Shown: positions 1,594 to 10,988 of the stretch, piece by piece
Layout of the letters: the number at the start of each line of letters is the position of its first letter
How positions within the stretch are numbered: the stretch's first letter is position 1
Virus record (IMG/VR): IMGVR_UViG_3300037400_003033
Location: 747 to 64,746 of that record
Direction: 5' to 3' (one strand)
Origin: a virus
Taxonomy: Duplodnaviria > Caudoviricetes
Length of the DNA: 64,000 nucleotides
The notes under the pieces: generated by a model
Database searches by the model: none
What the model saw: only the letters and a program-made list of their open reading frames with translations
Told to the model about the DNA's origin: nothing
Program-made: the position numbers and the translations under genes

Positions 1594-1681
1594 GGAGTAT
1601 TGAGTTAGCGGCTATACGGGCGGTCTTGAAAACCGTTGACATGCGATGAGCGTGGCGCAAGTTCGAGTCTTGCATACTCCG
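1594..1681 (+). tRNA. tRNA-Ser(TGA)
   Basis: GGAGTAT/ATACTCC; GCGGT-CTTGAAA-ACCGT; long variable arm. Confidence 0.95.
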
Positions 1682-1813
1682 CTAAGATTAAAGCGCCTTT
1701 GATGGGATTCTCTAATTAGCCCATCAATTAAAACTAAATGGCAACGCGCTAGTTAGATGTATAAGTTGAGCATTTGGTAAGCAAAGGTTCTGCAAGGTCG
1801 CCTTTGGTTTTTT

Positions 1814-1887
1814 GGGACGGTAGTTCAATTGGCTAGAATACGTGATTTGTAATCATGAGGTTGGGGGTTCGATTCCCTCGCCTTCCG
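1814..1887 (+). tRNA. Atypical tRNA: TGT (Thr) anticodon on a tRNA-Ala-like body, imperfect acceptor stem
   Basis: 5' part identical to the tRNA at 1984 except anticodon TGT vs TGC; acceptor GGGACGG/GCCTTCC with G3-U70 and two mismatches. Confidence 0.65.
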
Positions 1888-1983
1888 AAAAAATGACTCC
1901 CCGTTTCTTGCGCAGAAACTTGAATGAGTAAAAATCGAAAGGTTTAACCGAACTTTATTCTAGGTAAAGATGTAGGTAATTTT

Positions 1984-2057
1984 GGGACGGTAGTTCAATT
2001 GGCTAGAATACGTGATTTGCAATCATGAGGTTGGGAGTTCGATGCTCCCCCGCTCCA
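1984..2057 (+). tRNA. tRNA-Ala(TGC)
   Basis: CGTGA-TTTGCAA-TCATG; G3-U70 pair; A73. Confidence 0.9.
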
Positions 2058-2063
2058 CTAAAT

Positions 2064-2219
2064 CCAAGCGTAACAGTTTGGGGCGTTTGGTTAATGAAGT
2101 ATGTTAGATCTTTTCGGGCAAACTGAACCGATACGTTTACACTCGGCAGTAATAACATCGAGGAGTGCAAACGGAACAAAACTAACTAGTCGTATGACGT
2201 CTGCGACGATAAACCCGAA
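2064..2219 (+). ncRNA. Putative structured ncRNA, unknown class
   Basis: Helices CCAAGCG/CGTTTGG, TTCGGG/CCCGAA enclosing CGTTTACACTC/GAGTGCAAACG. Confidence 0.45.
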
Positions 2220-2231
2220 CACCTTTTTTAT

Positions 2232-2302
2232 GGGCCGTAGATGGCGAGGTGCCATGTCTCTTTTGCAAGGAGAATTAGCGGGTTCGACTCCCAACGTGTC
2301 CA
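2232..2302 (+). tRNA. Atypical tRNA-Ala(TGC)-like element
   Basis: TCTCT-TTTGCAA-GGAGA; GTTCGACTC T-loop; bulged acceptor with G3-U70 and A73; D arm ATGGC/GCCAT. Confidence 0.55.
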
Positions 2303-2347
2303 CTAAACTAACATCTTAAAAAAGTTAATATTATTGAGGATTTTAAT

Positions 2348-5390: not shown

Positions 5391-5463
5391 GCCGTCATAG
5401 CTCAATTGGTAGAGCACCTGACTTGTAATCAGGGGGTTGTAGGTTCGAGACCTATTGGCGGCT
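5391..5463 (+). tRNA. tRNA-Thr(TGT)
   Basis: GCCGTCA/TGGCGGC; CCTGA-CTTGTAA-TCAGG. Confidence 0.95.
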
Positions 5464-5466
5464 CAA

Positions 5467-5537
5467 TGCTCGCGACATTGCTGGGTAGTGGCTGGTCTGC
5501 AAAACCAAGAGGCACGGTTCGATTCCGTGGCGGGCTT
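5467..5537 (+). tRNA. tRNA-Cys(GCA)
   Basis: loop CTGCAAA; T arm CACGG-TTCGATT-CCGTG. Confidence 0.85.
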
Positions 5538-10499: not shown

Positions 10500-10988
10500 A
10501 TGATTGAAAAACTTTTGGAAGAAATTAAAAATCTTACAGAAACAAGAAGAAAAGAGTATAGAAATGCATCTGCTCGATTGCGTTTTTATTGGTTTAAATA
10601 TAAAAACGTAGAAAATGTGGAATGGTACAAGGCATCATTCGCTTTGATGATTTGTTTGTTTATAAGTGAATCAATTGCACTTTTTATGAAGCCAAGCGCA
10701 GTAGATCCATTTGCTTATATGGTCTTAGCACTTTGTTTTATAAGAATTGGTTATTCACTTATTTATAATGCAAAATATAAATACTTTATTCGCGATAGTA
10801 AAAAGCAATACGAATTGGCACTTTATCGTCTTAAAAATACTTTGTATTTACAGCAGAGAGCAATTCAAGGTTCTTTAGTTGAAGATGCTGCTGGAAACAA
10901 TGAAAACAACAAAGAATTCATTGATGGACTTTATGACGGTATTAAATCACAGTATGAAGATGAATTAGGAACTAGGTTTTTAAGTTAA
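10500..10988 (+). CDS. Two-helix membrane protein
   Basis: Promoter TTTACA 10452-TATAAT 10475; two hydrophobic segments. Confidence 0.8.
   Translation: MIEKLLEEIKNLTETRRKEYRNASARLRFYWFKYKNVENVEWYKASFALMICLFISESIALFMKPSAVDPFAYMVLALCFIRIGYSLIYNAKYKYFIRDSKKQYELALYRLKNTLYLQQRAIQGSLVEDAAGNNENNKEFIDGLYDGIKSQYEDELGTRFLS

Follow-up and report, generated by a model that had tools for sequence, protein, structure and literature searches.

A strain-specific mosaic tRNA gene with a threonine anticodon in the tRNA array of a jumbo phage fragment

The tRNA gene with a TGT anticodon at positions 1814–1887 of the phage DNA analysed here is probably a very young, strain-specific mosaic gene, a by-product of recombination without an established role. 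Its 5′ two-thirds match the neighbouring tRNA-Ala(UGC) gene except at one anticodon base, its 3′ third comes from a different tRNA, and the whole gene lies in an insertion that is absent from four relatives.

The Phage Fragment and Its tRNA Array

The window, by which we mean the whole 64-kb stretch of DNA analysed, belongs to an IMG/VR virus record of 64.7 kb with a CheckV completeness of 28%. Genes for rIIA, a tail sheath and a portal protein mark it as a piece of a jumbo myovirus genome; the G+C content is 34%. ARAGORN finds 21 tRNA genes between 1072 and 5464, and searches of GenBank phages with megablast and blastn returned no close relative of this array, only scattered tRNA matches. ACA is the commonest threonine codon in the window (534 of 964, or 55%) and makes up about 3% of all codons. 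As the original prediction had stated, a normal tRNA-Thr(UGU) is present at 5391–5463, with an Rfam score of 69.9 bits and a cloverleaf energy of -25.2 kcal/mol. Directly 3′ of it, at 5466–5537, lies a weak tRNA-Sec-like match (29 bits). The features needed for the argument are as follows.

1594–1681, plus strand: tRNA-Ser(UGA), called by ARAGORN and Rfam; the discriminator, G1681, bounds the insertion site on the left
1682–1887, plus strand: strain-specific insertion of 206 nt (spacer A and the mosaic tRNA), absent from L005, L010, L011 and L024
1682–1813, plus strand: spacer A, 132 nt, containing an 8-bp hairpin and, immediately 5′ of the tRNA, a weak hairpin with a trailing T6
1810–1865, plus strand: Ala-derived block, identical at 55 of 56 positions to 1980–2035 (four T and nt 1–52 of the gene)
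1814–1887, plus strand: mosaic tRNA gene with a TGT anticodon (1848–1850) and G73; CCA is not encoded
1861–1887, plus strand: foreign 3′ third (T-arm, 3′ acceptor strand and G73), overlapping the Ala-derived block at TTGGG
1888–1983, plus strand: spacer B, which in relatives lies directly between tRNA-Ser(UGA) and tRNA-Ala(UGC)
1984–2057, plus strand: established tRNA-Ala(UGC), with G1-C72, G2-C71, G3.U70, A4.C69 and A73
2232–2304, plus strand: atypical Ala(UGC)-type tRNA with a 5-bp D hairpin
5391–5463, plus strand: canonical tRNA-Thr(UGU), called by ARAGORN and Rfam, with G1-C72 and C2-G71

Before the first tRNA, a small ORF (914–1012) lies between a consensus promoter (853–881) and a strong terminator (1034–1063). 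The ACA and ACG codons of this leader had been read as consistent with a first tRNA cluster that counts a threonine decoder. In the relative L003 the ORF is 98.7% identical (10832–10930) and keeps the same two codons, and the first tRNA cluster there has no TGT tRNA; the leader argument is therefore uninformative on the gene at 1814. In L005 and L006, the N-terminal half of the leader ORF has diverged and the ending ...VSYEPAYDP is kept.

A Mosaic of Two tRNAs

The TGT gene is called as a tRNA both by ARAGORN and by Infernal with the Rfam model RF00005, wherein 1814–1887 scores 50.5 bits and the Ala gene at 1984–2057 scores 56.2 bits, both above the gathering score of 29. ARAGORN sets the boundaries at 1815–1887 for Thr(tgt) and 1984–2058 for Ala(tgc). 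The original prediction took these genes, whose starts are separated by 170 nt, for a duplicated tRNA with a single anticodon switch, identical from the 5′ end through the variable loop except for TGT versus TGC. This description stands for the 5′ two-thirds: across the 56-nt block formed by nt 1–52 and the four preceding T, the sole mismatch is T1850 versus C2020, which is nt 37 of the gene and position 36 of the anticodon, and the longest exact repeat between the two genes is 40 nt. It does not extend to the 3′ third, wherein the genes differ at nt 53, 61, 63, 65, 67, 69, 70 and 74. The contrast between one difference in nt 1–52 and eight in the last 22 nt gives a Fisher p of 1.5e-4, at a cut that was picked post hoc. 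Near-identity to a tRNA of another isotype combined with a point change in the anticodon, as expected of an alloacceptor shift, is thus found for the 5′ two-thirds only. The two acceptor mismatches and the G73 that had been noted in the TGT copy are both recovered, since Infernal gives C5.C68 and G7.G66 as the non-standard acceptor pairs of this gene (A4.C69 in the Ala gene) and the discriminator is G, versus A in the gene at 1984.

The 3′ third matches a tRNA of another class. A scan of IMG/VR with the 3′ 25 nt matched one contig, L009, in which nt 48–74 (27 nt) recur exactly as the 3′ end of a type-II tRNA. L009 is an unrelated, G+C-rich virus, and the matched tRNA has a long variable arm, the loop CUUGAAA with the anticodon UGA, and the 5′ strand GGAAGGC. 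Prokaryote genomes, scanned in the same way with 24 nt, yielded one further case: a Planctomycetia MAG (L026) shares these 24 nt exactly, within a long-arm tRNA-like gene that also starts with GGAAGGC. The GGAAGGC of both tRNAs pairs perfectly with the 3′ strand of the TGT gene; the two matches show the natural pairing partner of this strand and are not put forward as donors. Set opposite the Ala 5′ strand GGGACGG, the 3′ strand GCCUUCC produces exactly the two acceptor mismatches observed. U70 pairs with A3 in both exact-match tRNAs, so that the G3.U70 of the gene at 1814 would be a by-product of the fusion and not a retained alanine determinant. G73 is among the identity elements of bacterial tRNA-Ser (Table 1, PMC9976931), and a type-II origin of the 3′ end therefore accounts for both G73 and U70. 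As judged from these alignments, all 74 nt of the gene can be explained by the Ala gene (nt 1–52), a type-II tRNA 3′ end (nt 48–74) and one substitution.

Among 179 tRNAs gathered from all loci, none fitted as the donor of the 3′ third. The tRNA-Tyr of the window matches the T-arm at 19 of 20 positions but has a different acceptor strand, and was rejected. A plain tandem duplication, through unequal crossover between the Ser and Ala genes of one genome, was likewise rejected: such an exchange should have left spacer B flanking the hybrid on either side and given the hybrid the 3′ end of the Ser gene, and the window shows neither.

A Strain-Specific Insertion

Relatives of the locus were retrieved via flanking genes. 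In the closest, L024, the neighbouring ORF is identical, and 2 of 718 aligned nucleotides are different from those of the window; the neighbouring ORF of L010 and L011 is 98% identical to that of the window, and a flank protein of L005 is 65% identical. In all four, tRNA-Ser(UGA) is followed by the 95–96-nt spacer B and by tRNA-Ala(UGC), with no TGT gene, the Ser-spacer B-Ala module being identical across relatives such that the four may represent one lineage. The Ala gene is 100% identical in all four, spacer B is 100% identical in L005, L010 and L011 and matches at 95 of 96 positions in L024, and L005 and L010 also share an identical tRNA-Ser(UGA), with spacer B directly 3′ of it. The flanks of the insertion site are identical or nearly so in the four relatives. 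The insertion begins exactly 3′ of the discriminator of tRNA-Ser(UGA) and ends at the discriminator of the TGT tRNA, and TCCG is common to both edges.

A shifted copy is thus kept in none of L005, L010, L011 and L024, which fits the option, raised in the original prediction along with a check of relatives, that the TGT gene is a decaying duplicate or pseudogene. Absence from relatives, which that prediction had named among the findings that would speak against it, is seen in four of four. A more distant relative, L008, also carries a canonical, syntenic tRNA-Ala(UGC), followed as in the window by the atypical Ala-like tRNA. Retention of the Ala gene in four relatives and its synteny in L008, with the TGT gene in none of them, supports the TGC gene as the resident and the TGT gene as derived, such that the anticodon would have shifted from Ala to Thr. 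Loss of the TGT gene in all relatives, instead of an insertion in this strain, is less parsimonious, and the 5′ identity would then also require gene conversion.

Spacer A (fold z-score -1.9) has no homologue in the fetched loci, elsewhere in the window, in the whole record of the closest relative or in IMG/VR. Comparison of the insertion with that whole record gave short T-arm matches only. Exact-pattern scans of IMG/VR with the shared anticodon arm (TGY) and with spacer A returned 0 matches each, and neither IMG/VR nor the fetched loci yielded a second copy of the TGT gene. No promoter or terminator was called within 1682–1983.

Turnover of the tRNA Array

The content of tRNA genes varies widely among relatives. 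In L003 the unit of spacer B and tRNA-Ala(UGC) is missing, with the junction exactly at tRNA 3′ ends (L003 11940–11990 versus window 2058–2100), and tRNA-Ser(UGA) is directly followed by the conserved element that lies 3′ of the Ala gene in the window. These differences fit gain and loss of ‘spacer + tRNA’ units via recombination in the conserved region of the T-arm and 3′ acceptor strand, from which occasional hybrids such as the gene at 1814 would be expected. Genes resembling homing endonucleases (DUF559, HNH_3 and NUMOD3) lie inside the tRNA arrays of relatives and are plausible candidate drivers of this mosaicism.

Endonuclease-like genes: L010 3969–4622; L013 3531–4148; L022 4328–4843, 6806–7420 and 10664–11290; L023 7630–8229

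Several further observations concern the arrays of this family. In the window, the stretch 3′ of the Ala gene gives a weak permuted-tmRNA match (2033–2092, 18 bits), and relatives carry a tmRNA of their own upstream of the tRNA array (L003 8950–9352; L014 3349–3677; L016 2636–2963; L023 1565–1935), with tags ending in ...YAMAA, ...YALVA or ...YAMVA; the matching part of the present contig precedes the window. In L022 (6434–6510) and L023 (6428–6503), syntenic tRNAs directly precede Ala(tgc); ARAGORN gives one of them the anticodon TTA, of the ochre-suppressor type, and calls the other Tyr(GTA). This pair may represent a further anticodon change in the phage family. The only TGT tRNA called by ARAGORN in the overlapping loci L002 and L003 (IMGVR_UViG_3300032030_000136) is an 82-nt tRNA with a long variable arm at L003 14350–14431.

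Acceptor Stem and Folding

The conserved core of the TGT gene is fully present in the register that starts at 1814 (U8, A14, G18-G19, U33, T54-T55-C56 and A58), and the tertiary nucleotides G53 and C61 are also intact. The acceptor stem, by comparison, is not a continuous helix of 7 bp: five of the seven pairs are standard with a start at 1814 and six of the seven with a start at 1815. In the latter register the stem reads G-C, G-C, A-U, C.U, G-C, G-C and U-G, and U8 is lost. The 5′ strand can thus slide by one base, and the G3-U70 of the TGT gene is for this reason register-dependent. The earlier statement that both tRNAs keep G3-U70 is accordingly right for the Infernal register (start 1814) and wrong for the ARAGORN register (1815), in which the pair is A3-U70.

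The calculated cloverleaf energy is -12.4 kcal/mol with a start at 1814, and -16.7 kcal/mol (with one linker nucleotide) or -14.9 kcal/mol (with a 3-bp D stem) with a start at 1815, such that the second register is better by 2.5–4.3 kcal/mol; the Ala gene at 1984 reaches -16.1 kcal/mol. The unconstrained MFE fold of the TGT gene contains no acceptor stem. The folding models thus predict a trade-off, wherein the 1815 register gives up G3.U70 and U8, and the 1814 register keeps the tertiary core with a weaker helix.

Proposed Origin of the Mosaic Gene

The route that we favour would begin with a 206-nt ‘spacer + tRNA’ cassette entering a recombination-prone array directly after tRNA-Ser(UGA). 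The first 52 nt of its tRNA and the four preceding T would have been copied from the resident tRNA-Ala(UGC), and the last 27 nt (T-arm, 3′ acceptor strand and G73) would come from a type-II tRNA with the 5′ strand GGAAGGC, the two sources overlapping in TTGGG, 5 nt of microhomology where the T stem begins. A single C-to-T transition would then have turned UGC into UGU, in the direction of the mutation bias expected at 34% G+C; recombination, moreover, is mutagenic in its own right. The acceptor stem would be defective and slip between two registers because its halves were never selected to pair. The mosaic gene is probably co-transcribed with its neighbours and would mature poorly, and its presence may well be neutral.

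Several points speak against a mere by-product. The chance that the sole difference falls within the anticodon is about 3/52. The divergence between the window and L024 (2/718) predicts only about 0.14 substitutions per 52 nt, and a neutral hit exactly at the anticodon is therefore improbable, although the case was picked for that very change. The tRNA core is intact, and the score of 50.5 bits falls within the range of the neighbouring tRNAs (43.6–70.3 bits). An extra UGU decoder could be advantageous, with ACA the commonest threonine codon. Finally, no donor was found for spacer A in IMG/VR and the fetched loci, or for the 3′ third in these and in prokaryote genomes.

Aminoacylation Identity and Alternative Explanations

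The bacterial alanine set consists of A73, G2-C71, G3.U70, G4-C69 and G20, and the bacterial threonine set of G1-C72, C2-G71, G4-C69, G5-C68, G35 and U36 (Table 1, PMC9976931). With G73 and A4-U69, the TGT gene lacks A73 and G4-C69 of the alanine set, and its G3.U70 is present in the Infernal register and replaced by A3-U70 in that of ARAGORN; the corresponding elements of the resident Ala gene are A73 and A4.C69. The threonine anticodon elements G35 and U36 are present (1848–1850). From the threonine acceptor set, the 1814 register retains G1-C72 only and the 1815 register G1-C72 and G5-C68; pair 2:71 is G2-C71 in both registers, versus C2-G71 in the phage tRNA-Thr at 5391.

The description of the TGT gene as an Ala body carrying a Thr anticodon is not borne out by the body itself. 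Outside its orthologues, nt 8–48 of the Ala gene are closest to the phage tRNA-Thr (32 of 41 positions) and then to the L008 tRNA-Ala (30 of 41), and the best GenBank phage matches of the Ala body are annotated as tRNA-Thr; the body is diagnostic of neither isotype. Alanine identity resides in the acceptor end, part of which is lost in the gene at 1814. The second, atypical Ala(UGC) tRNA offers a view of the same determinants elsewhere in the family. It adjoins the regular Ala gene and is conserved, with homologues called by ARAGORN in L003, L005, L008, L010 and L022; the window copy (2232–2304) was missed by ARAGORN and Rfam.

Homologues of 2232–2304: L003 12114–12187; L005 3843–3916; L008 5802–5871; L010 960–1033; L022 6532–6603

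Despite compensatory changes at 10 pairs between its two sequence forms, this tRNA is invariant in G1-C72, G2-C71, G3.U70, UGC and A73. Alanine decoders that appear to be under selection in this phage family thus keep G3.U70 and A73 through extensive covariation, versus the G73 of the gene at 1814. Any matured product of this gene would be more likely to be taken up by ThrRS via G35 and U36 than to be alanylated.

Uptake by ThrRS is the core of the leading alternative, namely that the gene was recruited as a working extra tRNA-Thr(UGU), charged through G35 and U36 and adding to the supply for ACA decoding, which we regard as possible but rather unlikely. The single change in the copied part is exactly the one that yields a threonine anticodon, ACA accounts for 55% of threonine codons and about 3% of all codons, and the core is intact with a good covariance-model score. 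Saks et al. in 1998 are said to have found that an E. coli tRNA-Arg with a UGU anticodon can replace tRNA-Thr. The better-folding register, moreover, is free of G3.U70, which is an anti-determinant for yeast ThrRS (PMC9976931). Yet the acceptor helix is weak, and C2-G71 and G4-C69 (Table 1, PMC9976931) are missing in both registers, as is G5-C68 in the 1814 register. A canonical tRNA-Thr(UGU) is already available at 5391, and the gene is missing in four of four relatives, the near-identical strain included.

A tRNA of dual identity is improbable. Here the transcript would be processed at 1814, present G1-C72, G2-C71 and G3.U70 to AlaRS, and insert alanine at ACA (and ACG) codons. G3.U70 is a dominant and transplantable AlaRS determinant, and a tRNA-Tyr given this pair accepts both amino acids (PMC9976931). 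The Infernal register does supply G3.U70 together with U8, but U70 is of foreign origin, the pair depends on the register, two mismatches lie below it, and A73 and G4-C69 are missing. In yeast, three of the four threonine anticodons, when placed in tRNA-Ala, had a minimal effect on growth and were well tolerated (bioRxiv 10.1101/2022.11.23.517754). In the phage, 534 ACA codons of its own genes would be affected in the window alone, and the TGT gene is not conserved. ThrRS, the E. coli enzyme included, hydrolyses Ala-tRNA-Thr in trans, as summarised in PMC9976931 citing PMC7337962, and could thus clear the mischarged product.

The anticodon loop has its own possible use. Phage tRNAs can offset anticodon nucleases, and the TGT gene differs from the phage tRNA-Thr at position 32 of the loop (U versus C), as a decoy or cleavage-resistant spare against a host nuclease targeting tRNA-Thr(UGU) might. 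We consider such a counter-defence role very unlikely, since the TGT gene just has the anticodon stem-loop of the Ala tRNA, lies in no recognisable defence or anti-defence context and is without conservation in relatives. Very unlikely, too, is an artefact in the form of a chimeric contig or a wrong base at 1850: the sequence is a metagenome assembly with a 40-nt exact repeat and an insertion seen in one contig only, but the unique spacer A is joined to phage sequence on both sides, the TGT base is linked over 15–40 nt to the foreign T-arm as well as to the Ala-type 5′ part, the T-arm abuts spacer B, and the path is not obtainable from any combination of known alleles.

Relation to Known Systems

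The mosaic gene, read as a recent product of recombination, resembles several known systems in part. In alloacceptor remolding, or anticodon shift after duplication, a near-identical paralogue of another isotype acquires an anticodon point mutation (Rogers and Griffiths-Jones, 2014, as presented in PMC9976931). Here, only the 5′ two-thirds were copied, the 3′ third is foreign, a single strain is involved and the new identity is putative. Remolding of mitochondrial tRNAs is a further example of alloacceptor shift. Vertebrate tRNA-Thr with G4.U69 likewise combines a threonine anticodon with an acceptor G.U that AlaRS can read; it is mischarged by AlaRS and cleared by ThrRS and ATD (PMC7337962; PMC7302879). 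Those genes are conserved and abundantly expressed, with sound stems and the G.U at pair 4:69, whereas the phage gene has it at pair 3:70 in one of two registers, along with two mismatches and G73.

Engineered anticodon variants of tRNA-Ala and transplants of G3.U70 share with the phage gene an Ala-type 5′ body and a non-Ala anticodon (bioRxiv 10.1101/2022.11.23.517754; PMC9976931). Unlike the gene at 1814, the engineered tRNAs retain A73 and an entire alanine acceptor stem. Hybrid tRNA genes also arise naturally via unequal crossing-over or gene conversion, as in the tandem tyrT genes of E. coli and the conversion of serine tRNA genes in S. pombe. In these cases, as here, recombination in conserved tRNA segments yields chimeras and changes in copy number; the phage gene differs in that its partners are of different isotypes and its 3′ donor was not found.

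Significance

Were the product of the gene to be charged, its import would be greater, as it combines a threonine anticodon with a possible AlaRS determinant. Under dual identity, if true, the phage would replace threonine by alanine, deliberately or tolerably, at its own commonest threonine codon, or alternatively titrate the editing activity of host ThrRS, and the gene would be a natural counterpart in a bacterial virus of the problem posed by vertebrate tRNA-Thr(G4.U69). As the recombination by-product that we favour, the mosaic tRNA is a strain-level snapshot of the turnover of phage tRNA arrays, in which tRNA 3′ ends are the sites of cassette gain and loss. Recombination in the T-arm can fuse two tRNAs, and one transition can then reassign the codon, thus providing the raw material from which alloacceptor tRNAs are made.
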